A DNA stretch of 64,000 nt from an uncultured Sphingomonas sp. (GCF_913777625.1 NZ_CAJYTI010000010.1:175095-239094), one strand, 5' to 3'. Positions 7,950-40,590 are shown, counted from the first letter of the stretch. Program-made: numbers and translations. Notes: a model not told the origin generated them from the sequence alone.

Positions 7950-8091
7950 GGCAGATTTCGCCTGAAACCTTTAAAGGAGTGCTAATCGCGGGCTTAGGTA
8001 GTTTTCCGCAAAGGACCCCCGACCTTTATAGCAGTTGCGATTCGCAACGTGGGCCAAGTGCCTGAAAAAATGATGGTTAATCGCCGTTCAG
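7950..8091 (-). promoter_or_regulatory. Sigma-factor promoter region: ftr-like box (7950-7962), TGCTATAAA (8025-8033), CtrA-like half-match (8076-8091)
   Basis: GGCAGATTTCGCC; minus-strand CTATAAA; minus-strand CTGA-N7-TTAAC. Confidence 0.45.
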
Positions 8092-8133
8092 CATGTGCGC
8101 TAACGACGCTTCTCGCGGCCGGAAATGGCGGAT

Positions 8134-9168
8134 TTACGAGGAAAATTTTTCCGGTTGGATGTGCCGGTCGATGAATTGCAGTAACCATTCCCGATGGGCA
8201 CGGGTGGCGTCGCCGGCACTGGCGATGCGCTGTTCTGCAGCCGATCCGCCGATCTGGGCGGCGAGCAACTGGCGGGCACGGCCCGCGTCAATCCCGCCGG
8301 CGAGAAATTTTCGCGCATCGCCCAGCCCCAAATGGTGGCTGAGATAGGCGGCCTTGGCCAAGGTTTCCGAGTCGGCGCGCACGTTGAGCCCGGATGATTC
8401 GAGCTTATGCAAATTGTTGCGGGCCATATCTGCGACGGTGAGAATCGACGCCTGCGGATCGTAGCGCAACGCCAGCAACTCGCTGCGCCGGCTGGGATCG
8501 ACCTTGCCGTTCTCCTTCAGCCAGCCGCGCGCCTTGGCGACGTCGTTCAGCCAGGTGCCGCTCTGTTCGGCGAGTCCCTGCCAGGTGCCGCTGAGGAACT
8601 GGCCCAGCCCCGCCGCGCTCGAGCGCGGGTTGCGGGAGAGCGGGTTCCAGCTGCCGTCATGGCCCTTGCCGGCTTCGGCGTTGACGATTGCGGCGAGCGC
8701 ATTGGCAGGCACGCCGCTCCGTGCCTCGGCCGCCGCCAGCGCATCGGCGTAGCGGCTGTTGGCGCCGAGCGCGAGCGCACCGGAGGTGCCGCCGGCGGCG
8801 ACCCCGGACGCAGGGGCGGAGGCCATGGCGGCCGGCGGCGCCGCGATTGCCCGGGCGCGCTCGGCCGTCAACGGCGCCTTGGGCGCGACGGCTGCGTCCT
8901 GGGCGTCGTCGTGACATGAACAGGCGCATTGGCAGTTGCAGCGGCCCTTGGACGAACGCGGCGCCTGGGTGCCGAGCAGTTCGAGCAACGAGTCCATCTG
9001 CATGTCCGAACCCGGGCCGAGCGGCGAGCGGGTCTTGCCCGCTTCGCGGTCGCCGTCGCCGAGCGCGGCGCGCCAAAGCCGGGTCGAGAGCTCGGACTGC
9101 GCCTGGGCGTAGATCACGTTGGCGCGCTGGGCCGGCGTGAGCGCGGCGAGGTCGGTACGGTGGATCAT
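8134..9168 (-). CDS. Lytic transglycosylase (SLT-like), probable flagellar peptidoglycan hydrolase, with a Cys-rich linker
   Basis: AAIVNAEAG (catalytic Glu), SSAAGLGQFLSGTW, YLSHHLG; ATGA overlap with the fliJ-like gene. Confidence 0.8.
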   Translation of the reverse strand: MIHRTDLAALTPAQRANVIYAQAQSELSTRLWRAALGDGDREAGKTRSPLGPGSDMQMDSLLELLGTQAPRSSKGRCNCQCACSCHDDAQDAAVAPKAPLTAERARAIAAPPAAMASAPASGVAAGGTSGALALGANSRYADALAAAEARSGVPANALAAIVNAEAGKGHDGSWNPLSRNPRSSAAGLGQFLSGTWQGLAEQSGTWLNDVAKARGWLKENGKVDPSRRSELLALRYDPQASILTVADMARNNLHKLESSGLNVRADSETLAKAAYLSHHLGLGDARKFLAGGIDAGRARQLLAAQIGGSAAEQRIASAGDATRAHREWLLQFIDRHIQPEKFSS

Positions 9169-9596
9169 GCAGCCTTCACCGGCATCCGCTTGCGCTCGCG
9201 CAGGAAGCGCGCCGCGGCAATGTCATCAATCGCCGCCTGTTCGGCGGCTTCGGCCTCGCGCTCGGCATCGGCGCGGAAGCGCTCGGCGGCGCTTTCGATC
9301 GCGCGCAGCGTGCCAAAGGCCTCGCGCGCCTGTTCGCGCAGCTGCAGCAGGCGGTCCTGTTCGGCCGCGACTTCCTGGCCGAGCCGGGTCTGGGCGTGCT
9401 TGGCCGTGGCCAGCCAGGCGTCCGAGGCAAAGGGCAGCGCGTGGGCGAGCATCCGCTCCTCGCGCATCCGCTCGACGAGCGTGCGGGCCTGCTGCTCCAT
9501 CTCGGCGATGCGCTCGATCGAGGCGCCGATCGCGACCTTGAGGTCGTCGACGCTACGCTGCTGCATCCGCAGTGCGGTGTCGAGCGGCGTCCTCAT
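9165..9596 (-). CDS. fliJ: FliJ-like flagellar export chaperone
   Basis: 143-aa coiled-coil protein immediately downstream of fliI. Confidence 0.65.
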
Positions 9597-10954
9597 GCGG
9601 CGAGACCCACGTCATGGCCCGGCTCGCCCGCGGCGGCACCGGAGAGGATCGCGGCGAGTTCGGCGAACGCCGCCTCGGCATGGCCCTGGTCGTTCTTGCC
9701 CTGGTTGAGCAGCGCCTCGATCCGCGGCGCGAGCGCCACGGCGCGGTCGACCTCGGGTGAAGATCCCGCCTTGTAGGCGCCCAGCCGCACCATCTCTTCC
9801 ATGTCGGCATAGGTCGACAGGAGCTTGCGCGCCGCGATGCGGACGTCGTTCTGCTCTGGCTCCAGGCAATGGGGCAGGGTCCGCGACACGGACTTGAGCA
9901 CGTCGATCGCGGGGTAGCGGCCGCGCTCGGCGATCGCGCGGCGCATCACGACGTGGCCGTCGAGGATGCCGCGCACCGCGTCGGCGACCGGCTCGTTATG
10001 ATCGTCGCCGTCGACGAGGACGGTGAACAGGCCGGTGATCATGCCCTGGCCGGGGGCGCCGGGGCCGGCGCGCTCCAGCAGGCGCGGCAGCTCGGCGAAG
10101 ACCGTGGGAGTATAGCCCTTGGTCGCAGGCGGCTCGCCCGAGGCAAGGCCGATCTCGCGCTGCGCCATCGCGAAGCGGGTGACCGAGTCCATCAGGCAGA
10201 GCACGTTGAGGCCCTGGTCGCGGAAATGCTCGGCGACGGCCAAGGTCGTCCAGGCGGCCTGGCGGCGCATCAGCGCGGGTTCGTCCGAGGTGGCGACGAC
10301 GACGACCGAGCGGGCCATGCCTTCGGGCCCCAGATCGTCCTCGATGAATTCCTGCACTTCGCGGCCGCGTTCGCCGATCAGGCCGATCACTGCGACGTCG
10401 CACTGTGTCCAGCGCGCGAGCATCGACAGCAGGACCGACTTGCCCACGCCCGAACCCGCGAACAGGCCGAGCCGCTGGCCGCGGCAGAGCGGCACGAAGG
10501 TATCGAGGCAGCGCACCCCGGTCTCGATCCGCTCCGCCACGCGGGCGCGGCCGGCAGCGGCGGGGGGCGAGGCCTTGATCGGCTGCGGGTCGGCGCCGTT
10601 GGCGAGCGGACCCTGTCCGTCGACCGGCCGGCCGAGACCGTTGATCATGCGCCCGAGCCATGCCTTGGAAGGGCGCACGGTGAACTGGCCCGCGCCCAGC
10701 TCGGCGATCGCGCCCAGGCCGACGCCCTGCGGATCGACGAAGGGCAGGCACAGCGCCACGCCGCGATCGAGCGCGGTGACTTCGGCTTCCACCTTGCCCG
10801 AGGGCGACTGGATTTCGACGCGGCTGCCGATCTGGGCAACGCCGGTCAGCCCTTCGACTTCGATCAGCGCGCCGCGCACCGCCACCACGCGCCCGAAGCG
10901 GCGATCCGGAACCATCTCCCGGATTGCACGTGCGGCACTGGCGAGCGTTTGCAT
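9593..10954 (-). CDS. fliI: Flagellar export ATPase
   Basis: [45 protein letters not shown]; start ATG 10954, downstream of the flbT stop. Confidence 0.95.
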
Positions 10955-10968
10955 CGCGGCGGCGTCCT

Positions 10969-11373
10969 TCAGGCGGCCTGGGTGGCGCTCTGGTCGGCGG
11001 TGGCGGCGTCTTCCAGCGCGATCACCTCGCGAGCGGCGGCGAGCGCCTTGTAATATTCGCCCTGGGCGAGTTCGTTGGCGAAGCGGATGCACAGCTCGCT
11101 CGCCTGCGGCGTGCCGAGCGTGGTGATCACCAGGCTGATCAGCTGGACGATGGCATCCTGATGCGCGCTGCGGCCTGCCGGATCGATATAGGCCAGCATG
11201 GTCGCGAAATAGAGCTGGCGGGCAGGCGTGGTCGCTTCCTCGGGCCGCATCACTTCGCGACCGCGCAGGATCGATACCATATTCTCTACGGCAATCTGGG
11301 TACGACCGACGGCGCGCAACACGGCGCCGTTGACGATCGCTTTTTCACCGTCGCGGAGCGTGATGCGAAGCAT
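10969..11373 (-). CDS. flbT: Flagellar biosynthesis regulator FlbT
   Basis: [18 protein letters not shown]...[12 protein letters not shown]...[12 protein letters not shown]. Confidence 0.9.
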
Positions 11374-11403
11374 GGCACTGGCCTTTCGATAAGCGTTCCT
11401 AAA

Positions 11404-11519
11404 CTTATAGCGACGTTTGCAGCGCGCGGTGCGAATACCCGGCAAATTTTGCCGCCTCCCGTGCGCGGACAGGCAATTTCGCCCTATCGATTTGGGCCGG
11501 CCCGCCACCCCTCTACAAT
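11404..11519. promoter_or_regulatory. Divergent flbT/flgE control region with two ftr-like palindromes and two -10-like motifs
   Basis: Minus CTATAAG 11404-11410; GGCAAATTTTGCC 11441-11453; GGCAATTTCGCCC 11472-11484; plus CTACAAT 11513-11519. Confidence 0.6.
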
Positions 11520-11570
11520 AAAGACGTCGCCGGCGTGGGGATCGCGCGGGCATCTCGAGGAGTTTTGAAC

Positions 11571-12878
11571 TTGAGCCTCTATTCCGCTCTTTACGCTGGC
11601 GTTTCCGGGCTGAGCGCGCAGTCGAGTGCCATGGCCACGGTTGCCGACAACATCACCAACATCAACACCGTCGCCTATAAGGGCGTCGAGGCCCAGTTCC
11701 GCACGCTGGTGACCGATGGTCGCGCGTCGTCGAGCTACTCGGCCGGTGGTGTCGCGGCTTCGCCGATCGCCGAGGTCTCCAAACAGGGGCTGCTCCAGGC
11801 TTCGGGCAGCAGCACCGATCTTGCCATCGATGGCGGCGGCTTCTTCATCACCCGCAGCGGCCTCACGCAAAGCGACCCGGTCGCCTATACCCGGGCCGGC
11901 TCGTTCAAGCCGGACGAAGAAGGCTATCTGCGCAATTCCTCGGGCCAGTATCTCTATGGCTGGCGCCTGGATGCCACGGGCGGCTACACCAACACCGGCA
12001 ACCTCGACGCGCTGACGCCGGTGCGGCTGAGCGATCTGGTCGGCACGGCGGCGCCCACCACCAAGCTGCAGGCCCGCATCAACCTCCAGTCGGACGCCAC
12101 GATTTCGTCCGCCGCATCCACCTACACCGCGGGGCAGATGGCCTCGGGCGCGGTGACCCCCAGCTTCACCCGCTCGTTCACGGTCTATGACTCGCAGGGC
12201 GGCAGCCATCAGATGAACATGTCGTTCCTGAAGACGGCGGCGAACACCTGGAAGGTGGAGAACTACCTGGTTCCCGCCAGCGACACGACCGCCGCCGGCG
12301 GCGTCGTCAGCAGCGGCACCGTTCAGTTCAACGGCGACGGCAGCCTGAACAAGACCGCCTCGACCGCGGCGCTGTTCAGCCCGCTCACCATCAACTACAC
12401 CAACGGCGCCAGCTCGGTGCCGATCGACATCGAACTGGGTGACAATGGCAGCATCAACGGCCTGACCCAGTTCGGCCAGCCTTCGTCGCTGATCTCCGGC
12501 GGTGCCGATGGCGGCATCCTGGGCAACATCGCCTCGACCGAAGTGTCGAAGGACGGCGTGGTCAGCGCGATCTTCGACGACGGCTCGACCCGCAAGGTCT
12601 TCCAGCTGCCGATCGCGACCTTCCCGAACCCGAACGGCCTGACCCGCGTGTCCGGCAACTCCTATTCGGCCAATCGCTCGTCGGGATCGATGACGATGAA
12701 CCCGCCGGGGCAGCTCGGCGCCGGCAAGCTGTCGTCGAACACGCTGGAGGCATCGACCGTCGATCTGGCGGGCGAGTTCACCAACATGATCCGCTTCCAG
12801 CGCGCCTACAGCGCATCGTCGAAGATCATCACCACGGTCGACGACATGCTGCGCGAAGTCAGCGATCTGAAGCGCTGA
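11571..12878 (+). CDS. flgE: Flagellar hook protein
   Basis: TTG start with GAGGAG RBS; ADNITNINTVAYK, TDLAIDGGGFF, YTRAGSF, LEASTVDLAGEFTNMIRFQRAYSASSKII. Confidence 0.95.
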   Translation: MSLYSALYAGVSGLSAQSSAMATVADNITNINTVAYKGVEAQFRTLVTDGRASSSYSAGGVAASPIAEVSKQGLLQASGSSTDLAIDGGGFFITRSGLTQSDPVAYTRAGSFKPDEEGYLRNSSGQYLYGWRLDATGGYTNTGNLDALTPVRLSDLVGTAAPTTKLQARINLQSDATISSAASTYTAGQMASGAVTPSFTRSFTVYDSQGGSHQMNMSFLKTAANTWKVENYLVPASDTTAAGGVVSSGTVQFNGDGSLNKTASTAALFSPLTINYTNGASSVPIDIELGDNGSINGLTQFGQPSSLISGGADGGILGNIASTEVSKDGVVSAIFDDGSTRKVFQLPIATFPNPNGLTRVSGNSYSANRSSGSMTMNPPGQLGAGKLSSNTLEASTVDLAGEFTNMIRFQRAYSASSKIITTVDDMLREVSDLKR

Positions 12879-12906
12879 CGACCACTGAGGCCGGGGGACG
12901 CACGAC

Positions 12907-15012
12907 ATGGCACTGAACGATATCCTTGGAACCGCGGTTTCCGGCCTGGCAGCAGCCCAGGCCGGATTGCGCGCGGTATCGAACAACATCGCCAATGTCG
13001 GCGTCACCGGTTACGCCCGCGAAAAGGTCACGCTCTCGACGTCGGTCGTCACCGGCCAGGTGAGCGGCGTGACCGTCGGCGAGCCCGAGCGCGTTGCCGA
13101 CCGCTTCCTCGAGCAGACCGTCTATCGGCGGGCGGGCGATTATGGCCGCGCCGATGTCACCTCCAGCTATCTCGATCGCCTGCAGGCGCTGCTCGGCCAG
13201 CCGGGTGCTTCGTCGGGGCTACCCGCGCGGCTCGATGCGATCAGCGCCGCGGCAACGGCGATGACCGGCTCGCAATCCGCGGCGCAGACCACGGCGGTGT
13301 TCACCGGCAACGTCGCCGACGCGCTCGCCTCGATGCAGCAGACCACGCACGACGTGGACGGTCTGCGCGCCGACGTGGAGTCCGAGGTCGGCTATTCGGT
13401 CGACAAGATCAACACGCTGCTCACGCGCATCAACGATCTGAACAGCACCGTGGCGCAGGCAACCGGGCAGGGGCGCAGTTCCAGCGGTGCCGCCGATCAG
13501 CGCATGAACGCGATCGAGGAGCTGAGCGGCCTGCTGTCGGTCAATGTGCGCGACCAGCCGGACGGGCGGGTGTTCATCGAGACGACCTCGGGACAGATGC
13601 TGCTCGACGGCCGCCTGCGCCAGCTCGATTATCCGAACAACGGCAACGGTACCGGCAGTTCGCAGACCACCTATCCGGACATCAGCATCCGGTTCACCAA
13701 CAAGGACGGTTCGGTTGGCGCGCTGACCGGCGAGAAGCTGGACTCGGCGGCGGTCGGCGGCAAGCTGGGCGGCCTGCTTGATCTGCGCGATCGTGCGCTG
13801 CCGGCCTTTTCCGAACAGTTGGGGACCGTATTCAGCGGTCTTTCCGAGGCGCTCAACGCGGTATCCAATGCAGGCTCCACCGTGCCGGCGCCCACCAGCC
13901 TGACCGGCCGCCAGACCGGTCTTGTCGCTACCGACCGGCTGGGATTCACCGGCAAGGCCACCTTCGCGGTGACCAAGGCGGACGGCACGTTGCTCGCCAA
14001 GACCGAAGTGAATTTCGACGCGCTCGGCCCCAGCGCCACGGTCGGCGACATGATCAACGCGATCAACACCGGGCTGGGCGGCGCCGCGACCGCCAGTTTC
14101 TCGGGCGGGGTGCTGAGCTTCACCGCCACCGGGGCCGGCAACGGGGTGGCGATCGCGCAATCGGCCACGAGCCCCAGCCAGCGGGCCGGCGTCGGCGTCT
14201 CGCAATATTTCGGCATGAACGACCTGATCCGCAGCGACAGCAGCACGCTGGTGCCCAGCGGCTTCAACGCATCGGATCCGCACGGCTTCACCACCGGTCA
14301 GAGTGCGCAGATCGTTCTGCGCGATGCCTCCGGCCTGGCGCTCACCAGCTACACCCTGCAGCCGACCACCGGCGGCACGATGGGCGACATCGTCACCACG
14401 CTGAACAGCAGCCCGCTCGGCAATTTCGGCACCTTCTCGCTCGATACCCGCGGGCGGATGCGGTTCGATCCGGCGAGCGGCATGTCCGGCGCGGCGATTT
14501 CGATCGCGGCGGATTCGACGGACCGCTACGGCAGCGGTCGCACCTTTTCCGCGCTTTCCGGCCTCAGCGGGCTGAACAGCGGGCTGGACGTCGCCAAGGT
14601 TCGCGCCGACATCGCCGCCAATCCGAGCCAGCTTCCGCTCGCACGGCTGGATCCGACGGCTGCCCTCAACACGAAGGTGCTCGGCGCCGGCGACATCTCC
14701 GGGGCCACGGCGTTCGTCAACAAGCTCGCCGGCACGCTGGACATGGGCAAGGACGGCGTGACCACCGTCAATCGCCTGTCCACGCAGTTGCTGGGCAATG
14801 CCGGCCTCGAAGCGAGCCAGGCGAAGAGCCGGCTCGACGACGCGAGTGCCCGCAAGGACGACGCCGTCAACCGGCGCGACAGCTTCTCCGGCGTCAATAT
14901 CGACGAGGAACTGTCGCAGATGGTCGTCCTGCAGAACAGCTATTCGGCATCGGCGCGGGTGATGACCACCGCCACGCAGATGTACGACACACTTCTCCAG
15001 ATGGTCCGTTAA
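12907..15012 (+). CDS. flgK: Hook-associated protein 1
   Basis: VSNNIANVGVTGYAREKV...SGVNIDEELSQMVVLQNSYSASARV. Confidence 0.95.
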   Translation: MALNDILGTAVSGLAAAQAGLRAVSNNIANVGVTGYAREKVTLSTSVVTGQVSGVTVGEPERVADRFLEQTVYRRAGDYGRADVTSSYLDRLQALLGQPGASSGLPARLDAISAAATAMTGSQSAAQTTAVFTGNVADALASMQQTTHDVDGLRADVESEVGYSVDKINTLLTRINDLNSTVAQATGQGRSSSGAADQRMNAIEELSGLLSVNVRDQPDGRVFIETTSGQMLLDGRLRQLDYPNNGNGTGSSQTTYPDISIRFTNKDGSVGALTGEKLDSAAVGGKLGGLLDLRDRALPAFSEQLGTVFSGLSEALNAVSNAGSTVPAPTSLTGRQTGLVATDRLGFTGKATFAVTKADGTLLAKTEVNFDALGPSATVGDMINAINTGLGGAATASFSGGVLSFTATGAGNGVAIAQSATSPSQRAGVGVSQYFGMNDLIRSDSSTLVPSGFNASDPHGFTTGQSAQIVLRDASGLALTSYTLQPTTGGTMGDIVTTLNSSPLGNFGTFSLDTRGRMRFDPASGMSGAAISIAADSTDRYGSGRTFSALSGLSGLNSGLDVAKVRADIAANPSQLPLARLDPTAALNTKVLGAGDISGATAFVNKLAGTLDMGKDGVTTVNRLSTQLLGNAGLEASQAKSRLDDASARKDDAVNRRDSFSGVNIDEELSQMVVLQNSYSASARVMTTATQMYDTLLQMVR

Positions 15013-15025
15013 GGGAGCTGACCCG

Positions 15026-15934
15026 ATGTCCCGCGTAGCCACCGTTCCGCTCCAGCGCACCATGGCCCAGGCCATTTCGACCGCGCAGGAAAAGCTGGCG
15101 ATCACCCAGCAGCAGCTCTCCACCGGCAAGAAGGCGTCCGATTTCGCCTCGCTGGGCACCGAGGCCGTGCGCAACCTTTCGGCGCACAGCCTGCTCGAGC
15201 AGCAAAAGGCACAGTCGGCAGTGGCGTCGCGGGTCGGCACCACCATGTCGCTCTATCAAGGCCATATCGAAGGGATCGAGAAATCCGCGACCGATCTTCG
15301 CCAGCAGATCATGACGGCGATCGGCACGGGCCAGAGCTCGGGCCTGCAAGAGGCCATCGCAAGCTCGTTCGACCAGGTCCGCGCATCGCTCAATGCCAGC
15401 GAGGGCGGCGTGCCGCTGTTCGCCGGATCGCAGACGGACCAGCAGCCCTTTTCGGTGACGTCGCTGGCCGACGCCGCGACGACGACGGCGGCCGATGCGT
15501 TCCACGACGATAACAAGCTGGCCAGCGCGCGGGTCGGCGACGGTGTCGATGTGACCTATGGCATCAACGCCAGCTCGATCGGCAAGAACCTCTACGAGGC
15601 GTTCCGTACGCTCGCCCAAGCGGGCCCGATCGGCACCACCATCACCGCTGCGCAGAAAACCGCACTGCAGCAGGCCGTGTCGCAGCTGAACGGCGGCCTG
15701 AACGACGTCAGTACCGTCAATGCCGATAACGGCCGCAAGCAGAACCAGGTCGAGGACCTGACCCAGCGCGGCCAGGATCGCTCGCTGCTGCTGCAGAAGG
15801 TGATCGAGGACAATGAAGACGCCGATCTGGGCCAGGTCGCGCTCGATCTGTCGCAGCAGCAGACGGTGCTGCAGGCCAGCTATTCCGTGTTCTCGCAGCT
15901 CAGCGGTCTCAGCCTCGTCAAGTATCTGTCCTGA
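15026..15934 (+). CDS. flgL: Hook-associated protein 3
   Basis: Flagellin-like termini (QQLSTGKK; PLFAGS; EDADLGQVALDL) following flgK. Confidence 0.9.
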   Translation: MSRVATVPLQRTMAQAISTAQEKLAITQQQLSTGKKASDFASLGTEAVRNLSAHSLLEQQKAQSAVASRVGTTMSLYQGHIEGIEKSATDLRQQIMTAIGTGQSSGLQEAIASSFDQVRASLNASEGGVPLFAGSQTDQQPFSVTSLADAATTTAADAFHDDNKLASARVGDGVDVTYGINASSIGKNLYEAFRTLAQAGPIGTTITAAQKTALQQAVSQLNGGLNDVSTVNADNGRKQNQVEDLTQRGQDRSLLLQKVIEDNEDADLGQVALDLSQQQTVLQASYSVFSQLSGLSLVKYLS

Positions 15935-16031
15935 TCGACTGGATTTATCATGCGGGTGGCGCAGGCTGTAAGGTCTGCGTCATCTCCGCCGCGTAGCATC
16001 CGCACCGAACGAATATTCGGGAGGCTGGGGG

Positions 16032-24458: not shown

Positions 24459-24673
24459 TGGGCTCCCGCCAGGAAATAGGTGACGGCGCCGCCGCCAAGG
24501 ACACAGGCAATGATGAAGACGAGGGCGGGCACGATCGGCAGCCCGGCAGGTGCCGCCGCCTGGGGTGCCCCCGGCTTGGCGTTCTGCTCGGCTTTGGTGT
24601 CGACGGCGTTGCCGCGGGCGGCGCCGGCATCGGCGACGACGCGCATCCGGGCGGGGCGTTGATCGTGGCTCAT
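24455..24673 (-). CDS. Small protein with a C-terminal TM helix
   Basis: 72 aa, hydrophobic IVPALVFIIACVLGGGAVTYFL; ATGA overlap with the TPR gene; GGAA-like RBS and CTATAA motif upstream. Confidence 0.65.
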   Translation of the reverse strand: MSHDQRPARMRVVADAGAARGNAVDTKAEQNAKPGAPQAAAPAGLPIVPALVFIIACVLGGGAVTYFLAGAH

Positions 24674-24701
24674 TTGTATTCCGTTAAGTGCTTACCCCTT
24701 A

Positions 24702-24710
24702 TTTATAGGA
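24702..24710 (-). promoter_or_regulatory. TYCTATAA -10-like motif
   Basis: Minus-strand TCCTATAAA 28 nt upstream of ATG 24673. Confidence 0.5.
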
Positions 24711-24759
24711 CGTGCGTGGCCGCAGCGGCGGCTCGCCCCATGCGGAAACGGGAGAAAAT

Positions 24760-27897: not shown

Positions 27898-27930
27898 CTA
27901 TTATAGAACCGTCACCCGGCAATTTCTGCC
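27898..27930. promoter_or_regulatory. Divergent fliL/flgF control region: palindromic CTATTATAG plus ftr-like box
   Basis: CTATTATAG 27898-27906; GGCAATTTCTGCC 27918-27930. Confidence 0.6.
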
Positions 27931-30755: not shown

Positions 30756-30757
30756 TA

Positions 30758-30841
30758 TTTACCGAAACTTTACCTTAATCATCCGGTAACCATCAAAATT
30801 TTCAGGAGAAATTTTGATGGAGGCGATTTTCTTCCCACAAT
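30758..30841 (+). promoter_or_regulatory. Flagellin upstream region: tandem CtrA-like boxes, 12-bp inverted repeat, -10-like motif
   Basis: TTTA-N7-TTTA 30758-30772; TTAA-N7-GTAAC 30775-30790; CCATCAAAATTT-N7-AAATTTTGATGG 30790-30820; CCACAAT 30835-30841. Confidence 0.5.
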
Positions 30842-31820: not shown

Positions 31821-31862
31821 GAGGGGGTCGGGATGGTTCGCCATCCCGACCCTCTTTTTTTG
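31821..31862 (+). terminator. Intrinsic terminator after flagellin
   Basis: GGGTCGGGATGG-TTCG-CCATCCCGACCC followed by a T run. Confidence 0.9.
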
Positions 31863-31926
31863 TTTGCCGTGAGGGTGCAAGCTATACGCGGCGTTTCTAC
31901 AGGGATCGAGAAGGGGAGAGCCGGCA

Positions 31927-32328: not shown

Positions 32329-32334
32329 CCCCGG

Positions 32335-32645
32335 CGCGCAGCACGGTTTCCTCGTGCCCGGCGTGTCGTGCGGGGCTCCATCTCTGGAACCCGGGACGCA
32401 GAAGGAAGGGGGGAGGCGGCGCCGCCGGCTGGCGTAGCAGCAACCCGACATGGCGTCCGCTCCGCATCGGGAGGCAGGGCGGGCAGGGATGCAAGGCCGC
32501 GGCGCGGCAGGCCGGCTCGGCCGTTCCCCGAAATGCGAGCGGCAGGCCAGTTGGGGGGAACTGGCCTGCCGCTGTGCCAGGCGGGGGGGGCCCGGCAATT
32601 AGGGGAGAGCGAAGATCGTGAGGGGATCGGAACGTCCTCGCTGCT
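32335..32645 (-). ncRNA. Candidate structured sRNA with C-rich hairpin loops
   Basis: Minus-strand hairpins with C7 loop (32575-32597), C6 loop on a 15-bp perfect stem (32538-32573) and GAGA tetraloop (32373-32392); TATAAC at 32655-32660. Boundaries are guesses. Confidence 0.35.
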
Positions 32646-32758
32646 CCTGCTATTGTTATATCGGAAATCCCGCACGAAGAGAAACGAAACTGGTTCTATC
32701 GGGCTACAGGATTTGTACCTAGGCAGATCCCCTTACGTATCGTTACGGTAGAAGTAAC

Positions 32759-33424
32759 TTACTTGGTGATGCGTAGGATCATGCTCGTGGGGTACTGTGC
32801 TCCGTTCACCGAAATCACCGGGGATCCATTGATCATCTGGACGTCGTCAACCTTGCCGACTGCATTGGCAGTGGTGGTGATCTTTGCGCCCGCGTCCGTC
32901 GTCCCCGTCAGCTGCAGCTGGTAAAGACCGCTGTCCACCTTCTTGCCGGTGCTGGTGGTGCCGTCCCAGCTGAAGTTGCCCGACGTGCCGCTCACCTTCA
33001 GATCGAAGCTGTCGACCTTGCTGCCCTTGTCGTCGAGAATGGTGGCGGTGAGGCCGGAGACCGCGTTGGTCGCGCTCCAGTCCCATTGCGCCGGTGCCGA
33101 TGCGCTGAGCGCCGCCTTGTCGGAATCGAGCCGCACCGGCTGACCGATCACCGCCGAGGTGGTGGTGAGCGAGGTCATGTTGAGGTTCGACAGGATCGAA
33201 TTCAGCGTCGTGTTCTGCTTGATCGACTGTTCTACCTGCGAATACTGGACCAGCTGCTGCGTGTACTGGCTGCTGTCCATGGGATTGGTGGGATCCTGGT
33301 TCTGCAGCTGCGTGGTGAGCAGTTTCAGGAACATGTTGTAGTCGCCGGTGAGCGATGCGGTCGCAGCGCTGGTCGAGCTCTGCGCGGCGCTGGTCGAGCT
33401 GGTGGCGGAAGAAACGAGGGTCAT
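32759..33424 (-). CDS. flgD: Hook capping protein
   Basis: FLKLLTTQLQNQDPTNPMDSSQYTQQLVQYSQVEQ. Confidence 0.96.
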   Translation of the reverse strand: MTLVSSATSSTSAAQSSTSAATASLTGDYNMFLKLLTTQLQNQDPTNPMDSSQYTQQLVQYSQVEQSIKQNTTLNSILSNLNMTSLTTTSAVIGQPVRLDSDKAALSASAPAQWDWSATNAVSGLTATILDDKGSKVDSFDLKVSGTSGNFSWDGTTSTGKKVDSGLYQLQLTGTTDAGAKITTTANAVGKVDDVQMINGSPVISVNGAQYPTSMILRITK

Positions 33425-33433
33425 GCGCTACTC

Positions 33434-34987
33434 CTAGGCGATGAGGTCGACCTGGCCGTCGCTCCGGACCGGGCGATAGGCTGCGGTCTGGATGTCGGGT
33501 TCGTCCTGAAACTGCTGGTTGCTGCCGCGCGACTGCCCCTGCTGCTGCGAGGCCGACTGGCCGTTCGCATTGCTGCCGGTACCGCCGTCGCGGCTCTCGA
33601 AGCGGAAGCTGCCGGCGTCGCTGCGGATGCCCGCCTGATCGAGCGCGCGGCCGAGGTCGGGGGCGTCCTGGCGCAGCAGGTCGAGCGTGTGCTGGCTGTC
33701 CGCCCGCATCGTCGCCTGGACGCGGCCATTGTCGTCGAACGCCAGCGTCACTTCGACGCGGCCGAGCTCGGCGGGGTTGAGGCGAACCCGCAGCGTATCC
33801 TCGCCGGCATCCACCTTGCGCGCGATCTCGACGCCGAGGCTGCGGCCGAGTTCGCCGACGCGGCCGTTGATCACGGGCTCGCCGGACGCGGGCGCTGCGG
33901 TGTGGGCGGCGGCCGCCGGGGCTGCAGCCTGGGTCGGCGTGGCGGTAGGCAGCGGCTGAACGGCCACGTGCCGGGTATCGACCGCGGCGAGTTGCTGCGC
34001 AAAAGGCTGCGGGTTGCCTTCGCCCTTGGCACCGCTATCGGCGGCCCCGCTGCCCGCTTGGCCGGCCACGGCGCGGGCGAGCTCGGTCGTCTTGTCCGCA
34101 GCAGCCGGGGTGGGCGTGGTATCGCCGGCGATTGCCGTCTCCACTTTGCTCGTGCGGACCGCGATCGTGCCTTCGTTCTTCGCCGTAGCGGTCGTGCGAG
34201 GCGCTGCCGGCACCGTCGGGGCGGCCTGTACGGCGGTAGCCTGGGGCACCGCGACAGGCTGGGGTTGCGCTCGGGCGCCCGCCACCGCCACGTCGGGCGC
34301 GGCGGGCAGGTCGTCGGACGGTTTCGTGCGGAGCGGCTTGCCGCTGGTCTTCGCCGGGAGCGTGGCTTCCGGAAGCGCCAGTCCGTCCGCGTCGGGCTTG
34401 GCCGGGGCGTCGAGGGCGACACCGTCCCCCGCCTGCGGCTGCCCAGCGGTCGCATCTGCCGGCGGGGTGATTTTGGCCAGGACGCGCGTCACGGCCGTCT
34501 TCGCGACGTTGGCGGGTTGCGCGGCGGTCGGCGTCTTGGGCGCCGCCTCGACTGGGTTTGGCGTCGCGGCGGCGACATCGCTCGGTTTCAGCTCGCCGGT
34601 GGCTGGGGCGACAGGTTTCGCAAGGGCCTTGGCAATGGCATCGGCCAGCGGGTTGCCACCTGCCACCACCGTGGGGGCCGCGGCTATCGGGGCGGCGGTA
34701 GCGAGCAGCTGCGTCATCGGCACCTGGGGACGATCACTCGAGACCGGCAGCGTCTCGGCGTCCGCGCTGCCGGGCAGCAGCGCGGCGCCGGTCTGTGCTG
34801 GGATCGTCGCGGGCTGCGTCGTCGCGAAGGATCCGAAGACGGGCGTGCCGAACACCAGGCCGGCTTGTGCGGCATTGGCCGTGCCGGTGCCGAGCAGCCC
34901 TGCAAATCCTGTGCCCGTCGCGGCATCGGCACCAGCCGCTGGTGTGGCGGAGGTTGCAAGGGGAGAGCCGATGTTCGTGACGTTCAT
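33434..34987 (-). CDS. fliK: Hook-length control protein
   Basis: Long Ala/Pro/Thr-rich N-terminus; C-terminal LRVRLNPAELGRVEV...DLLRQDAPDLGRALDQAG; upstream of flgD. Confidence 0.9.
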   Translation of the reverse strand: MNVTNIGSPLATSATPAAGADAATGTGFAGLLGTGTANAAQAGLVFGTPVFGSFATTQPATIPAQTGAALLPGSADAETLPVSSDRPQVPMTQLLATAAPIAAAPTVVAGGNPLADAIAKALAKPVAPATGELKPSDVAAATPNPVEAAPKTPTAAQPANVAKTAVTRVLAKITPPADATAGQPQAGDGVALDAPAKPDADGLALPEATLPAKTSGKPLRTKPSDDLPAAPDVAVAGARAQPQPVAVPQATAVQAAPTVPAAPRTTATAKNEGTIAVRTSKVETAIAGDTTPTPAAADKTTELARAVAGQAGSGAADSGAKGEGNPQPFAQQLAAVDTRHVAVQPLPTATPTQAAAPAAAAHTAAPASGEPVINGRVGELGRSLGVEIARKVDAGEDTLRVRLNPAELGRVEVTLAFDDNGRVQATMRADSQHTLDLLRQDAPDLGRALDQAGIRSDAGSFRFESRDGGTGSNANGQSASQQQGQSRGSNQQFQDEPDIQTAAYRPVRSDGQVDLIA

Positions 34988-35031
34988 GCAGTCGCCTCAT
35001 GCGCAGGGCGGAAGTGCAGCCCTTCCAGACC

Positions 35032-35040
35032 ATTATAGAG
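35032..35040 (-). promoter_or_regulatory. TYCTATAA -10-like motif
   Basis: Minus-strand CTCTATAAT 44 nt upstream of the fliK ATG. Confidence 0.55.
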
Positions 35041-35064
35041 GGATCGTTCCACCCGCGGGCCCGA

Positions 35065-37146
35065 TCAGCCAATTACGCCGAGCGCGCGGATGCGCGCGCG
35101 CGCGTGGATTTCGTTCTGCGACAGGACCACCGTCGCAGGGCGCACACGTTCGATGATCGAGCGGACGAACGGACGGATCGACGGGCTGGTGAGCAGGCAG
35201 GGGATCTCGCCGTCCTGCGCCAGTCGGTCATAGGTCTCGCGCACCGCGCCGATGAACTGCTGGAGCGCCGAGGGCGCCATCGCCAGCTGGCGATCGTCGC
35301 CGGTGCCGAGGATGCTGTCCGCGAACGCCTGGTCCCAGTCGGCCGAGAGCGTCACTACCGGGATCGCATCGCCGCGCGCCTGCGAGGCGCTGATCTGACG
35401 GGCCAGGCGGCTGCGGACATGCTCGGTGATGTAGGTGAGGTTGTTGCTGTGCGGCGCCGACTCCGCGATGCCTTCGAGGATCGTCGGCACGTCGCGGATC
35501 GAGATGCCTTCGGCGAGCAGGTTCTGCAGGATCCGCTGCACGCCCGAGATCGAGACCTTCGACGGGATGATGTCCGCCACCAGCTTTTCCGATTCCTTGT
35601 GGACTTCGGTCAGCAGCTTCTGTGTCTCGGTATAGGAAAGCAGATCGGAGATATTGTCCTTCACCAGCTCGGTGAGGTGCGTGGCGATGATCGTGCCGCA
35701 GTCGACCACGGTGAGGCCGCGGAAGCCGGCTTCGTCGCGCAGCTCGCGATCGATCCACAAGGCGGGCAGGCCGAACACCGGCTCCTTGGTCAGCTCGCCC
35801 GGCAGGCCGACCGGGCCGCCGCCCGGGTTGATCAGCAGCAGCTTCTCCAGCCGGATGTCGCCGCGCGCCGCCTCGGTCTCCTTGATCGAGATGACATATT
35901 CGTTGGGTTTCAGGCCCATATTGTCGATGATGCGGACCGAGGGCAGGACGAAGCCGAACTCGGTCGCCATCTGGCGGCGCAGCGCGCGCACCTGGTCGTC
36001 GAGCCGCGGTTCGCGGGTATCGTCGTTGATCATCGGCAGCAGCGCGTAGCCGATCTCGACGCGCACCGCGTCGATCGCCAGCGTCTGCGAGATCGGCTGC
36101 TCGACGGCCTGGGCCTGGGCGACTTCCTGCGCGGCGGCGAGGCGGGCCTTGGCTTCCTTGGCGCGCGCGCGCCTCGACATGTCCCAAGCGGCCCAACCCG
36201 ACAGCGCCGAGAAGGCGGCAAACGGGATGAAGGGCAGGCCCGGCATCAGCGCCAGCGCGCCCATCAGGAACGAGACCATCCCGAAGGCCTTGGGATAGCG
36301 GCCGAGCTGGTCGCCGAGCGCGGCGCCGGTCTTGCCCGCCACGCCGCCCTTGGAGACGAGCAGGCCGGCGGCGGTCGAGACGATCAGCGCTGGGATCTGG
36401 CTGACCAGACCGTCGCCGGCGGTGAGCACGGTATAGGTGCGGAACGCCTCGCCCACCGGCACGCCGTGGACGATCACGCCCATGGCGAGGCCGACGACGA
36501 TGTTGATCGCGGTGATCAGCAGGCCGGCGATCGCGTCGCCCTTCACGAATTTCGAGGCACCGTCCATCGCGCCGTAGAAGCCGCTCTCGGCCTCCACTTC
36601 GGCGCGGCGGGCCTTGGCCTGTTCCTCGTTGATCATGCCGGCGGAGAGATCGGCGTCGATCGCCATCTGCTTGCCGGGCATCGAGTCCAGGCTGAAGCGC
36701 GCGGCGACTTCGGCGATGCGGCCCGCACCCTTGGTGATGACGACGAAGTTGATGACCACCAGGATGATGAAGATGGTGAGGCCGATCACGGTCTCGCCGC
36801 CCATCAGGAACTCGCCAAAGGCCCCGATCACGCCGCCGGCCGCGTCATGCCCCTCATGGCCGTGGCCGAGGATCAGGCGCGTCGAGGCGAGGTTGAGGCC
36901 CAGCCGCAACATCGTCGCGATCAGCAGGATCGTCGGGAAGGCGCTGAGTTCCAGCGGCTTCTCGATGAACAGCGCCGTCATCAGGATCATCACCGAGAGG
37001 GTGATGGACAAGGCCAGCCCCATGTCGAGCAGCCAGCCCGGCATCGGCAGGATCAGCATCGCGATGATCGCGATCACGCCACCGGCCAGCGCCATGTCGC
37101 GGTTGGCGCCGATGCGTTGGAACAGGTTCAGGACGGCGGGGGGCAT
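35065..37146 (-). CDS. flhA: Flagellar export gate protein
   Basis: FPTILLIATMLRLGLN, ITKGAGRIAEVAARFSLDSMPGKQMAIDADL, FYGAMDGASKFVKGD. Confidence 0.97.
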   Translation of the reverse strand: MPPAVLNLFQRIGANRDMALAGGVIAIIAMLILPMPGWLLDMGLALSITLSVMILMTALFIEKPLELSAFPTILLIATMLRLGLNLASTRLILGHGHEGHDAAGGVIGAFGEFLMGGETVIGLTIFIILVVINFVVITKGAGRIAEVAARFSLDSMPGKQMAIDADLSAGMINEEQAKARRAEVEAESGFYGAMDGASKFVKGDAIAGLLITAINIVVGLAMGVIVHGVPVGEAFRTYTVLTAGDGLVSQIPALIVSTAAGLLVSKGGVAGKTGAALGDQLGRYPKAFGMVSFLMGALALMPGLPFIPFAAFSALSGWAAWDMSRRARAKEAKARLAAAQEVAQAQAVEQPISQTLAIDAVRVEIGYALLPMINDDTREPRLDDQVRALRRQMATEFGFVLPSVRIIDNMGLKPNEYVISIKETEAARGDIRLEKLLLINPGGGPVGLPGELTKEPVFGLPALWIDRELRDEAGFRGLTVVDCGTIIATHLTELVKDNISDLLSYTETQKLLTEVHKESEKLVADIIPSKVSISGVQRILQNLLAEGISIRDVPTILEGIAESAPHSNNLTYITEHVRSRLARQISASQARGDAIPVVTLSADWDQAFADSILGTGDDRQLAMAPSALQQFIGAVRETYDRLAQDGEIPCLLTSPSIRPFVRSIIERVRPATVVLSQNEIHARARIRALGVIG

Positions 37147-37172
37147 AAGCGGTTACCGGTTCCCTGGAAGGA

Positions 37173-38507
37173 TCAAGGGGCGGGCGAGACGGCGATGCCC
37201 GCCTCGATGAAGGTGCGCAGCTTGTTGCGCATCGTGCGCACCGAGATGCCGAGGATGTTCGATGCCGAGGTGCGGTTGCCGTGGCAGCGCTCGAGCGTCT
37301 GGAGGATCAGCTCGCGCTCCACCTCTTCCACCGTGCGGCCGACCAGGCTGTTGATGTCGAGCGCGTTCGCATCGGCATTGAGGTCGGCAAGCGGGGTGCC
37401 GTCGGCACGCACCAGGTCGCCCGGCGTGATCGCGGCGCCGCGGCCGAGCAGGATGGCGCGATGCACCGTCTCGTCCAGTTCGCGGATGTTGCCCGGCCAG
37501 CTGTAGCGCTGGAGCAGCGCCAGTGCCTCGTCGGTGAAGGCGCGCTCGGGCACGCCGTCGACTTCGGCATGGCGCTTGGCGAAATAGCGGGCGAGGGCGA
37601 GGATGTCCTCGCCGCGGGCGCGGAGCGGCGGCACCTCGACGCGGACCAGCCCCAGCCGGACCAGCAGATCGGCGCGGAACGAACCGCTGTCGACCAGCGC
37701 GTCGAGGTTCAGGCTCGATGTCGCGATCAGCCGCGCATGGAACGGGATCAGCTCGTTGCCCGCCAGGCGGCGGAACTGCTGCTTCTGGAGCACGTCGTGC
37801 AGTTTGGCCTGGAGCGCGGGCGACAGCATGCCCACTTCGCGGATCAGCACGGTGCCATGGCCGGCCTTTTCGAGCCGACCGATGCGGCGGGCGACCGCGC
37901 CCGGAAAGGCGCCGGCCTCATGGCCGAACAGCTCGGATTCGAGCACGTCGGGGGCAACCCCGGCGCATTCGGCGACCAGCATCGGCTGCGGACGGCCCGA
38001 GGCATCGTGCACGGCACGCGCCATCATTTCCTTGCCGCTGCCCTTCTCGCCGGTGATCAGCACCGGCGCGCTGCTGGGGGCGACGCCCGCGGCAAGCGAG
38101 AGCGCGCGGGCGAGGGCGGGGTGAACGCCGATCCAGGCCGGGGCCTTGCGCTCGACGACCGAGGCAATGGCCGCCGCGATCAGTTCGCGTTGCGGCGGAA
38201 GCGGTACGTAATCGCGGGCGCCGGCGCGGATCGCCGCAACCGCGCGCTCGGCCGGGGCATCGATGCCGCAGGCCAGCACCGCGATGGTGAAGCGTTCGCT
38301 GCGGATGCTCGCCATGAAGCCGGCGATGTCCGCCTCGACGTCGATCATCACCAGATCTGCGCCGCCCTGGCGCAGCTGGATCAGGCCGTCGGCCGGCGTG
38401 TCGGCCATCGCCACTTCGGCGCCGGCGCTGCGCGCCAGCTCGGCGGCGAGGCGGAACTCGCTGCCCGGCGCACCGATCAGGAGCATGCGTATGGAGCTGG
38501 CCATCAA
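37173..38507 (-). CDS. flbD: FlbD-like enhancer-binding protein (REC-AAA+-HTH) with degenerate sigma54-activation motifs
   Basis: FlbD-like receiver (VLACGIDA...YVPLPP), Walker A GEKGSGKE, GAFPGA instead of GAFTGA, Walker B VLIRE, intact HTH GNRTSASNILGISVRTMRNKL; fliN-flbD-flhA synteny. Confidence 0.88.
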   Translation of the reverse strand: MMASSIRMLLIGAPGSEFRLAAELARSAGAEVAMADTPADGLIQLRQGGADLVMIDVEADIAGFMASIRSERFTIAVLACGIDAPAERAVAAIRAGARDYVPLPPQRELIAAAIASVVERKAPAWIGVHPALARALSLAAGVAPSSAPVLITGEKGSGKEMMARAVHDASGRPQPMLVAECAGVAPDVLESELFGHEAGAFPGAVARRIGRLEKAGHGTVLIREVGMLSPALQAKLHDVLQKQQFRRLAGNELIPFHARLIATSSLNLDALVDSGSFRADLLVRLGLVRVEVPPLRARGEDILALARYFAKRHAEVDGVPERAFTDEALALLQRYSWPGNIRELDETVHRAILLGRGAAITPGDLVRADGTPLADLNADANALDINSLVGRTVEEVERELILQTLERCHGNRTSASNILGISVRTMRNKLRTFIEAGIAVSPAP

Positions 38508-38863
38508 CGGTCGGGCCGCACGATTTCGGTGAGCGTGACGCCCAGCGCGTTGTCGATCAGCACGACTTCGCCGCGGGCGATCAGCCGGTCGTTGACGAAG
38601 ATGTCGACCGGTTCGCCGACCCGGCGGTCCAGTTCGAGCACGGTCCCCGAACTGAGCGCCAGCAGGTCGCCGATCGGCATCCGCGCGCGGCCGAGCACGG
38701 CCTGTACCTTGACCGGCACGTCATGCACGGCCTCCAGGCCGGCGCTGCTGTTCTGCGCTTCGGGCGTGCTGCCCGGCAGCTCGAAATCCTCGAAATCGGG
38801 GGCGGGGGCCGGCTGGGGCTCGGGGCCGTCCGACGGGATGATGTCGTGGGGATCGATGTTCAT
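38504..38863 (-). CDS. fliN: Flagellar motor switch protein FliN
   Basis: DVPVKVQAVLGR, VLELDRRVGEPVDIFVNDRLIARGEVV. Confidence 0.95.
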   Translation of the reverse strand: MNIDPHDIIPSDGPEPQPAPAPDFEDFELPGSTPEAQNSSAGLEAVHDVPVKVQAVLGRARMPIGDLLALSSGTVLELDRRVGEPVDIFVNDRLIARGEVVLIDNALGVTLTEIVRPDR

Positions 38864-38874
38864 CTGCAAAAATC

Positions 38875-40503
38875 CTATGCGTTCATCCACTGGCGGATCA
38901 CCGAGGCCGCCTCAGGCGGGCTCGCGGCGATGGCCGAGCCGATCCGCTTCAGCGCGGAGAGCTTGATCCGCCCATCCACCTGGGCGAGGGCGATTTCCTG
39001 ATCGAGCAGCGGGGCGTCGCTCGCCGTCATCTGCTCGAGCTGCTGGAGCGCTTCCGGATCACCGTCGGCGGCGCGGGCCGTGAGCAGGCGCATCTCTTCA
39101 TTGTGCTGCTGTTGCTGCTGGGCCTCGAGCGCCATCATCTCGGGCTCGATCGCCAGCGGCTCCGGCTTGGGCTTGAGCATGCGCAGCGCGAGCAGGCCGA
39201 CGCCGGCGATCAGGGCGAGCTGGAGGAAGGTCCAGATCTTGTCCATCGGCAGCTTGGAGAAGAGGCTCTCCTTGGCGTCCTCGACGGGCACCGCCGAGAA
39301 GGGCATGCTCTCCACCACCACGCTGTCGCCGCGCTGGGTGTCGATGCCGGTGGCATTCTCCACCAGGCGCTGGAGGCGCTGGATCTGGTCGGTCGGCAGG
39401 CCCTTGGGGCCGCCATCGACCATCACCGCGATGGTGAGGCGGGTGACCTTGCCCGGCGCGCGCAGCGTGACCGTCTTGGTCGAGCTGTTCGAGAAGGTGG
39501 TGTCTTCCGAAGTCTGGTTGCTGGCCGACTGGCGCGAGGTGCCGGGCGCGGCCGGATTGGCCTTGGCATCGGGCAGCTGGTTGGAGACCGAGGTGGTCTG
39601 CGGGCCGGCCTCGTTTTCCTTGTTCTGGTCGCCGGTCTCGACGCTCACCTTGCGGGCGACGACCTGCTTGTCGGGATCGAACACGTTCGATTCCTCACGG
39701 GTCTGGTCGCGGTCGATCTGGGCCGAGACTTCGGCGCGGACCTTGCCCTCGCCGACGATCGGCTGGAGCAGTGCCTCGATCTCGTCGCGCAGCTTGGCTT
39801 CCACCGCCTGCTGGCGCTCGTCGGCATCGGCGGCGCCGGCGGTATCGGGATCGCCCGCGCGGGCGAGCAGCGCGCCGGTCTGGTCGACGACCGAGACCGC
39901 GTCCGGCGAAAGCTCGGGCACCGAGGAGGAAACGAGATAGCGGATCGAGGCGATCTGCTCCGATCCCATATGCCCCTTGGTCTTCACCGTGACGGCAGCC
40001 GTCGCCTTGCGGCTTTCGCTCGCGAACATCGCGCGCTCGGGCATGACGATGTGGACGCGGGCCGCGGTGACGGTCTGGATGGTCTGGATCGACTTGGCGA
40101 GCTCGCCTTCGATCGCGCGCGTCTCGTTCATCTTGGCGCGGCTTGCGGACACGCCGAAGGGCTGTTCGGAGTCGAGTACCTCATAGCCGATCTTGCCGCC
40201 CAGCTTCTCGCCGGCCATGCTCATCCGCAGCTGGGCGAGCTTGTCCTCCGGCGCCATGATCGCGGTGCCGTCGGCGGAAAGGGTGTAGGGGACGTTCTGG
40301 GCCTTCAGCTTCTCGGTGATCGTCGACGCCGCGGCGGGATCGAGATCGGTGTAGAGATAGCCCATGTTCGACTTGGAGCTGCTCATTGCCACCACGGTGA
40401 GTGCCGCGAGCAGCGCGAACGCCACACCGCCCATCATCGCGAGCCGCTTGGTGCCGAGTTGCGTCACCAGATTCTTGATCGCTTCCAAAGCCGCCCCATG
40501 CAC
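38875..40503 (-). CDS. fliF: MS-ring protein
   Basis: Two TM segments, GYEVLD...FGVS, RAIEGELAKSI, ARVHIVMP, RLTIAVMVDG; start could be TTG 40488. Confidence 0.96.
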   Translation of the reverse strand: MHGAALEAIKNLVTQLGTKRLAMMGGVAFALLAALTVVAMSSSKSNMGYLYTDLDPAAASTITEKLKAQNVPYTLSADGTAIMAPEDKLAQLRMSMAGEKLGGKIGYEVLDSEQPFGVSASRAKMNETRAIEGELAKSIQTIQTVTAARVHIVMPERAMFASESRKATAAVTVKTKGHMGSEQIASIRYLVSSSVPELSPDAVSVVDQTGALLARAGDPDTAGAADADERQQAVEAKLRDEIEALLQPIVGEGKVRAEVSAQIDRDQTREESNVFDPDKQVVARKVSVETGDQNKENEAGPQTTSVSNQLPDAKANPAAPGTSRQSASNQTSEDTTFSNSSTKTVTLRAPGKVTRLTIAVMVDGGPKGLPTDQIQRLQRLVENATGIDTQRGDSVVVESMPFSAVPVEDAKESLFSKLPMDKIWTFLQLALIAGVGLLALRMLKPKPEPLAIEPEMMALEAQQQQQHNEEMRLLTARAADGDPEALQQLEQMTASDAPLLDQEIALAQVDGRIKLSALKRIGSAIAASPPEAASVIRQWMNA

Positions 40504-40538
40504 TAGCTACGGGGCGCGGAATGCCCCTGGTTGTTAGC

Positions 40539-40590
40539 TTTATAGAAAGGGGGCGGAGCGGCAGTTTCTGCCGGGTGGGAATTTTTTGCC
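40539..40590 (-). promoter_or_regulatory. fliF promoter region: TTCTATAAA plus two ftr-like boxes
   Basis: Minus CTATAAA 40539-40545; GGCAGTTTCTGCC 40560-40572; GGAATTTTTTGCC 40578-40590. Confidence 0.6.

Follow-up and report, generated by a model that had tools for sequence, protein, structure and literature searches.

Conserved dyads beside -10-like boxes of sphingomonad flagellar genes as probable FlbD operators acting without sigma-54

The DNA analyzed here is a stretch of 64,000 nucleotides (nt) from an uncultured Sphingomonas sp. (NZ_CAJYTI010000010.1:175095-239094), referred to as the window, with positions counted from its first letter. It has a GC content of ~67% and stems from a Sphingomonas of the elodea/azotifigens/trueperi group (FlbD identity 90-98% to relatives); the N-terminus of its sigma-like protein is 100% identical to that of S. 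elodea ATCC 31461. The window carries a Caulobacter-type flagellar cluster (Table 1), in which a preliminary description had listed seven palindromes of the GGCA-N5-TGCC type and likened them to ftr sites. Among sigma-54 enhancer-binding proteins that can repress as well, FlbD with its ftr sites is the textbook example, and FliX is the partner of FlbD in Caulobacter. We found that such dyads are conserved cis elements that are geometrically coupled to a -10-like box (TYCTAYAAT). They probably represent operators for the helix-turn-helix (HTH) domain of FlbD, a sphingomonad version of ftr that would act from promoter-proximal positions and independently of sigma-54.

All seven strings are present in the window where they had been described. 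Since the count of the exact pattern is not significant (5 in the window against 2.2 expected, with 8 of 100 shuffles reaching 5), an A/T-centered motif, its genome-wide context and footprints were used instead, and phylogenetic footprinting provides the decisive evidence for sites. The relaxed motif, defined post hoc, has an A/T-rich center and at most one half-site mismatch. It matches 157 times across the 4.17-Mb genome, mostly in coding DNA, while six matches fall into the 1.8 kb of flagellar intergenic DNA, where 0.07-0.10 would be expected (Poisson P ~1e-9 to 1e-10, for a motif chosen post hoc). The dyad core is imposed by the search pattern, and independent evidence is thus found in flanks and positions alone. 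All positions given for sphingomonad dyad centers count the first T of the hexamer as -12 and rest on the assumption that TYCTAYAAT is the -10 element.

The footprints support the instances at 11441, 27918, 40560 and 40578 as solid sites, that at 11472 only weakly, and those at 7950 and 8140 not at all. Upstream of fliF, both dyads are invariant in 24 Sphingomonas loci, while their flanks are random and the DNA further upstream is unalignable. The block reads CTAGGCAAAAA(A/T)TTCC-(3-5 nt)-GGCA(G/A/C)AAACTGCCGC-(13-15 nt)-CTATAA, the distal dyad lies within a conserved block CTAGGCAAAAAATTCC, and the pair is spaced 16-18 bp apart in 23 distinct regions. Between fliL and flgF, 30 of the 32 distinct sphingomonad regions share the dyad 10-11 nt away from the palindromic box, with the bases in between randomized; these regions include Novosphingobium and Pacificimonas, and FlgF identity falls to ~69%. 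For flgF, the center of this dyad is at -19 if CCTAGTGA is taken as the -10 element and at +14 if the TATTAT of the palindromic box is used. The flbT/flgE dyad is present in all 37 regions in which both genes are divergent neighbors (Sphingomonas, Sphingobium, Sphingosinicella). There, the flbT TTATAG box is separated from GGCAA(A/T)TTTTGCC by 29-31 nt in 33 regions and by 40 nt, one extra helical turn, in another one. The element at 11472 is recognizable in close relatives only, as GGCAAAATCGCC or GGCAAAAATCGCC.

Table 1. Genes, boxes and dyads of the flagellar cluster, with two shortened flbD genes from other genomes
Feature	Position	Strand	Remarks
Unclassified sigma-70-family gene	6845..7897	-	350 aa; weak matches to sigma regions 2 and 4; syntenic with the cluster
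GGCAGATTTCGCC in leader of sigma-like gene	7950..7962		~+63 from that gene's CTATAAA box
GGAAAATTTTTCC	8140..8152		coding end of open reading frame (ORF) 8134-9168: last six codons, P-E-K-F-S-S-stop
fliJ-like gene, fliI			in cluster
flbT	ATG ~11375	-	
flbT -10-like box CTATAAG	11404..11410	-	conserved as TTATAG(G) on + strand, 37 regions
flbT/flgE dyad GGCAAATTTTGCC	11441..11453		center ~-50 for flbT, ~-79 for flgE
Second, weaker flgE element GGCAATTTCGCCC	11472..11484		shifted half-site; center ~-48 for flgE
flgE -10-like box CTACAAT	11513..11519	+	conserved as CCTACAAT, CCTAAAAT or CCTAGAAT, all flgE loci
flgE, flgK, flgL	from 11571	+	
fliM, fliL	fliL ATG 27841	-	divergent from flgF operon
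Palindromic box CTATTATAG	27898..27906		TATAAT towards fliL, TATTAT towards flgF
fliL/flgF dyad GGCAATTTCTGCC	27918..27930		11 nt from palindromic box; center ~-31 for fliL
flgF-flgG-flgA-flgH	flgF GTG 27959		divergent from fliL
Flagellin gene, flgD, fliK, flhA			in cluster
flbD	37173..38507	-	REC-like, degenerate AAA+ and FlbD-type HTH_8 domains (Pfam and NCBIfam); presumed dyad binder
fliN; fliF	fliF start 40503	- (fliF)	
fliF -10-like box CTATAAA	40539..40545	-	conserved as CTATAA(A/G/T); directed towards gene
fliF-proximal FlbD-type dyad GGCAGTTTCTGCC	40560..40572		center ~-34 relative to fliF CTATAAA; 13-15 nt from box
fliF-distal dyad GGAATTTTTTGCC	40578..40590		one half-site GGAA; center ~-52; 18 bp center-to-center from proximal
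fliX	52489..52904	+	Pfam FliX match 6.7e-19; GTG start; divergent from flgI
motB, che genes, motA			in cluster
Mini-FlbD gene, S. deserti	186-725		position in retrieved locus
Mini-FlbD gene, Sphingobium sp. DEHP117	94-645		position in retrieved locus

The box next to the dyads is a regional feature as well. TYCTAYAA(T/A/G) is always directed to the adjacent gene at 25-60 nt from its start codon, and it precedes most motility genes of the region, namely the sigma gene, flbT, flgE, a TPR gene, fliL, fliK, fliF, flgI, a pilZ gene, motA and flaF. The distance of 11-30 nt between dyad and box noted in the preliminary description agrees with our measurements (11 nt at fliL, 14 nt at fliF, 30 nt at flbT), and the location downstream of a box that it also mentioned applies to the palindrome at 7950 only. 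Elsewhere in the genome, further dyad-plus-box arrangements were found between flaF and a divergent HAD-like gene (C10:241274, 2 kb past the window), between flgC and a divergent fliN-like/fliO operon (C20:282665), and at two genes of unassigned role (C26:11039 and C39:53259). Dyads occur at both class II and class III/IV flagellar promoters (fliF, fliL/flgF, flbT/flgE, flaF, flgC/fliO). Their centers fall at -48 to -52 (fliF distal, flbT, the second flgE site, fliO and both unassigned genes), at -31 to -39 (fliL, fliF proximal, the HAD-like gene) or at -19 (flaF and flgC, where the dyad abuts CCTACAAT).

To place the dyads in a wider context, flgF upstream regions were taken from ~90 alphaproteobacterial loci, 58 of them from outside the sphingomonads (Caulobacter, Brevundimonas, Asticcacaulis, Phenylobacterium, Hyphomonadaceae, Parvibaculum, Rhodospirillales and others) and 33 from sphingomonads. 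Among the former, a strict TGGCNN-N5-YTGC sigma-54 promoter is found in 41 and a GGCA-N5-YGCC dyad in 42 of the 58 loci. Where both occur (32 loci), the dyad center lies at -75 to -136 with a median of -89, which is classical enhancer geometry. The CTAxxATAG box is absent from all 58 of these loci but present in 32 of the 33 sphingomonad ones, 30 of which have the adjoining dyad, while no sigma-54 motif lies within 200 nt of flgF in any of the 33. The sphingomonad sites follow the consensus ccCGGCAAnTTtTGCCtAG, the flgF sites in enhancer position of 30 non-sphingomonad loci the consensus ccCGGCAnnatcTGCCggg, and the 5' flank ccCGGCA is common to both. Thus, as far as sequence and target genes can tell, the sphingomonad dyads are homologous to the enhancer-position dyads of sigma-54-using relatives. 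Both the ftr-like nature and the promoter-proximal rather than remote placement proposed in the preliminary description hold: ccCGGCA-N5-YGCC stands at enhancer distance from sigma-54 promoters at flgF of Caulobacter, Brevundimonas, Phenylobacterium, Hyphomonadaceae and others, and the sphingomonad dyad 10-31 nt from TYCTAYAAT without any -24/-12 promoter.

A further link is provided by fliF of Brevundimonas, where a 13-mer identical to the proximal fliF dyad of the window lies 20 nt downstream of a CtrA box TTAACGCCTCTTAAC. We take this arrangement to be that of ftr4. In Caulobacter, FlbD binds ftr4 and represses PfliF, while it activates class III/IV promoters (PMC3930126, PMC4083442). Given the same dyad at enhancer distance and at Brevundimonas fliF, the element is by its sequence best regarded as of the ftr type and ancestral to these alphaproteobacteria.

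The presumed binding protein has changed as well. FlbD of the window matches the NCBIfam model of Caulobacter FlbD best (460 bits) and contains the sole FlbD-type HTH of the genome, which is 62% identical to a Caulobacter FlbD HTH (next best match E = 0.04). Its AAA+ domain, however, is degenerate, with GAFPGA for GAFTGA, VLIRE for the Walker B motif LLLDE, ECAG for NCAA and ATSSLNL for ATSNRDL. This holds throughout the clade: in ~115 sphingomonad FlbD cluster representatives the Thr of GAFTGA is replaced by Pro (71) or Ala (17), retained in three and otherwise exchanged for other residues, and all common variants have Arg instead of the Walker B Asp, while the recognition helix ILGISVRTMRNKL is almost invariant. 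Nine non-sphingomonad orthologs all possess NCAA, the sensor I Asn and an Asp-Glu in Walker B; GAFTGA is found in eight of them and GAFSGA in Limobrevibacterium. Judged from these residues, FlbD of the sphingomonad clade cannot be a conventional sigma-54 activator.

Some genomes go further. Five sphingomonad genomes that seemingly lack FlbD carry a shortened gene between fliN and flhA. In S. deserti and Sphingobium sp. DEHP117, the REC-like residues 1-122 are joined directly to the HTH (383-443), so that the AAA+ domain is cleanly deleted, and the forms of two Novosphingobium are shorter still. Nevertheless, the genomes with such a mini-FlbD keep fliF dyads, three of them at 12-13 nt from CTATAAT; Sphingobium has two dyads and S. 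deserti a single one ~32 nt upstream of a CCTATGAT box. Since the dyads are kept without the AAA+ domain, these natural deletions indicate that the domain is dispensable for the role of FlbD at the dyads. The reverse case is S. endophytica, the HTH of which is only 40% identical and has a degenerate recognition helix (GIPARRIGDTL). Neither fliF nor flgF of this species has a dyad, while the CTATAAT boxes and flagellar genes are intact. The loss of the dyad alongside a degenerate HTH ties the element to the HTH of FlbD.

One might argue that the dyads are not FlbD sites, but promoter elements or sites of another cluster-specific regulator, such as upstream elements recognized by the orphan sigma factor of 350 aa. 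In sphingomonads they do occur solely beside TYCTAYAAT boxes, and no common -35 element was found across 20 promoters with this box. Furthermore, the sigma-like protein is syntenic and conserved, with an N-terminus 74-100% identical across sphingomonad loci, which makes it a candidate reader of the boxes. However, the spacing between dyad and box varies by promoter (11, 14 or 30 nt), and a symmetric element that works in two directions is unlike a -35 element. The same dyad is found at flagellar promoters of alphaproteobacteria that use sigma-54, its presence follows the integrity of the FlbD HTH up to the joint loss in S. endophytica, and about half of the box promoters do without it. We thus consider this explanation rather improbable, although it is the strongest competitor of FlbD operators.

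That the dyads are classical ftr enhancers, from which FlbD would switch on neighboring -24/-12 promoters through sigma-54 holoenzyme, as it does in Caulobacter, is very unlikely. This scheme is assumed in a paper on Sphingomonas sp. WG that discusses FlbD (PMC8921679), and every source annotates FlbD as sigma-54-dependent; in the literature searched, we found no description of a sigma-54-independent FlbD in sphingomonads. In addition, rpoN is present in the genome, good sigma-54 motifs exist in intergenic regions elsewhere in it, and Walker A and the arginine fingers of FlbD are retained. Yet no sigma-54-type motif was detected in any flagellar intergenic region of the window, in line with the 33 sphingomonad flgF loci, and the clade-wide loss of the GAFTGA Thr and the Walker B Asp, together with the species that deleted AAA+ but keep the dyads, speaks against such a mechanism. 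The dyad itself was also considered as a -24/-12 promoter (TGGCAC-N5-TTGC) and rejected. In both, a short A/T-rich stretch separates GGCA from TGC, and the usual -24/-12 position is taken by the dyad at flgF, flaF and flgC. This likeness is superficial, since every instance has GG-N8-GC instead of GG-N10-GC, the element has genuine dyad symmetry, and its distance from the gene varies, as does its orientation.

Chance A/T-rich intergenic palindromes without function, the least likely explanation, might account for the non-significant exact count, the many relaxed matches in coding DNA and the behavior of 7950 and 8140, which resemble chance or otherwise constrained sequence, but invariant dyads and spacings amid randomized bases and the enrichment (P ~1e-9) refute it for 11441, 27918, 40560 and 40578, so that it stands for 7950 and 8140 only.

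Several observations weigh against FlbD operators as well. Full-length sphingomonad FlbD retains Walker A and arginine fingers, and nucleotide binding may therefore still matter. The positions of the dyads are heterogeneous (-19 to -81), so that no single mechanism fits all promoters, and many motility promoters with a box carry no dyad. At flgF the dyad is in a repressor-like position, whereas Caulobacter logic predicts activation of this gene. Novosphingobium sp. 18050 has a good HTH and a fliF dyad, but none at flgF. Finally, the identity with ftr rests on a comparison of retrieved sequences.

On balance, FlbD operators are nevertheless the most probable explanation, with the following scenario. 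In the ancestor, as in present Caulobacterales, Hyphomonadaceae and Rhodospirillales, the dyad would have served as enhancer ~90 bp upstream of sigma-54 promoters. In Sphingomonadaceae, the flagellar genes no longer have sigma-54 promoters but promoters with a TYCTAYAAT -10-like box and no recognizable -35, and the dyads are fixed at short distances from the box, with centers at ~-50, -31 to -39, or -19. FlbD in turn has lost residues for contact with sigma-54 (GAFTGA to GAFPGA) and for ATP hydrolysis (Walker B Asp to Arg). With both gone, it most likely acts as a simple dimeric DNA-binding protein, which FliX presumably still gates and thereby couples to assembly. Where the dyad overlaps the core promoter (fliF, fliL, flgF, flaF, flgC), we infer repression by occlusion of RNA polymerase; acting from -19 to -34, it would continue the ancestral repression of class II promoters. 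From ~-50 (flbT, flgE, fliO), activation is possible.

In the flagellar intergenic regions, a search for CtrA-like boxes (TTAA-N7-TTAA, at most one mismatch) gave just two, one ahead of the sigma gene (7971) and the other ahead of the flagellin gene (30775), and none at fliF or fliL. One might speculate even further that the FlbD-FliX checkpoint has been fully uncoupled from sigma-54: a FlbD with dead ATPase or without AAA+ would repress from -19 to -34 and activate from ~-50, the orphan sigma factor would read the boxes, and the CtrA input would have moved from fliF and fliL to the sigma gene. We regard this extended model as tentative and, taken as a whole, slightly more likely to fail than to hold; if true, it would be a natural stepwise case of an enhancer-binding protein becoming a classical repressor and activator.

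The closest known system is FlbD/ftr/FliX of C. crescentus, which governs the switch from class II to class III/IV genes. Orthologous FlbD and FliX, the ccCGGCA-N5-YGCC core and the target operons fliF, fliL, flgF and flgE are found here as well, and the fliF site is close to the core promoter, like ftr4, from which FlbD represses. In contrast to C. crescentus, there are neither sigma-54 promoters nor sites at enhancer distance, the sites being fixed 10-31 nt from TYCTAYAAT; fliF and fliL have no CtrA box, and FlbD of sphingomonads is devoid of the Thr of GAFTGA, the Asp of Walker B and the Asn of sensor I, or in some cases of the whole AAA+ domain. By orthology, motif and targets the system is thus to be classified as FlbD/ftr/FliX, while it fails the defining features of an enhancer with sigma-54.

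In its mode of action it would rather resemble derivatives of enhancer-binding proteins that lack GAFTGA and act at sigma-70 promoters, such as NtrC of Rhodobacter capsulatus, NtrC of Caulobacter and VpsR of Vibrio cholerae (PMC10274813). These, and also TyrR/PhhR and NtrX, share the lost GAFTGA loop and the promoter-proximal sites. However, NtrC and VpsR control nitrogen or biofilm genes, and most reports describe them as activators, while here a flagellar checkpoint regulator is affected. Furthermore, Walker B is lost too, and there is a natural series up to complete loss of AAA+ in the REC-plus-HTH mini-FlbD.

Taken together, what was a remote enhancer system in the ancestor appears to have turned into a simple switch next to the promoter. 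The family seems to have kept the DNA-binding domain of FlbD, its sites and FliX, but to have discarded sigma-54 promoters and the function of the ATPase, with some genera losing the ATPase domain altogether. This amounts to an experiment of nature on which functions of FlbD depend on the AAA+ domain and offers a testable model for the evolutionary replacement of enhancer-dependent promoters. It also allows a clear prediction of which motility genes belong to the regulon in Sphingomonas strains that produce gellan, welan or diutan, in which motility and polysaccharide production are co-regulated.

Two of the listed palindromes were rejected as ftr-type sites. The motif at 7950 is not conserved, and relatives carry GACGAAATGTGTC or unrelated sequence. 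In close relatives with GACGAAATGTGTC, both half-sites are altered (GGC/GCC to GAC/GTC) and the symmetry is preserved, which suggests the site of a different protein or a leader hairpin. A CtrA-like box TTAGCACTCCTTTAA on the minus strand (7971-7985) lies 8 nt from this palindrome. The string at 8140 varies as codons among relatives (PEKFSS*/PDKFSS*/PEQFAG*) and is thus no site in this genome. At the homologous position, the end of the upstream ORF, distant Sphingomonas have GGAACAATTCGCC followed 17 nt later by a CCTATAAT box; these species may possess a dyad-plus-box promoter of the sigma gene that is absent here. In close relatives, a conserved GATTAACCATCATTTTTT is located ~45 nt upstream of the CTATAAA box of the sigma gene (window 8068-8085), and TTAACCAT resembles a CtrA half-site. 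Another rejected candidate is TGGCACGCAACCTGCT (52516-52531), a good sigma-54-like string. It is located within the coding sequence of fliX, 27 nt past the GTG, and is no promoter candidate, so that its likeness is probably fortuitous.

A few minor observations concern other motility promoters. The CtrA-like box upstream of the flagellin gene, TTAATCATCCGGTAA, spans 30775-30789, and neither a TYCTAYAA box nor a dyad is visible there. A second palindromic box CTATAATAG, preceded by AATAATTAACCATGATCC, lies at 46140-46225 inside a called 1494-aa ORF (44551-49035); as this is a simple ORF call, either the call or the start of the downstream gene is in doubt. At 24640-24711, the CTATAAA promoter of a gene for a 607-aa TPR-like protein has a degenerate relative of the dyad, GCACCACATTTTCTCCCG, ~50 nt upstream. 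It resembles GCAATTTCTCCCG, which is found upstream of flgE in those sphingomonads in which flgE is not adjacent to flbT.

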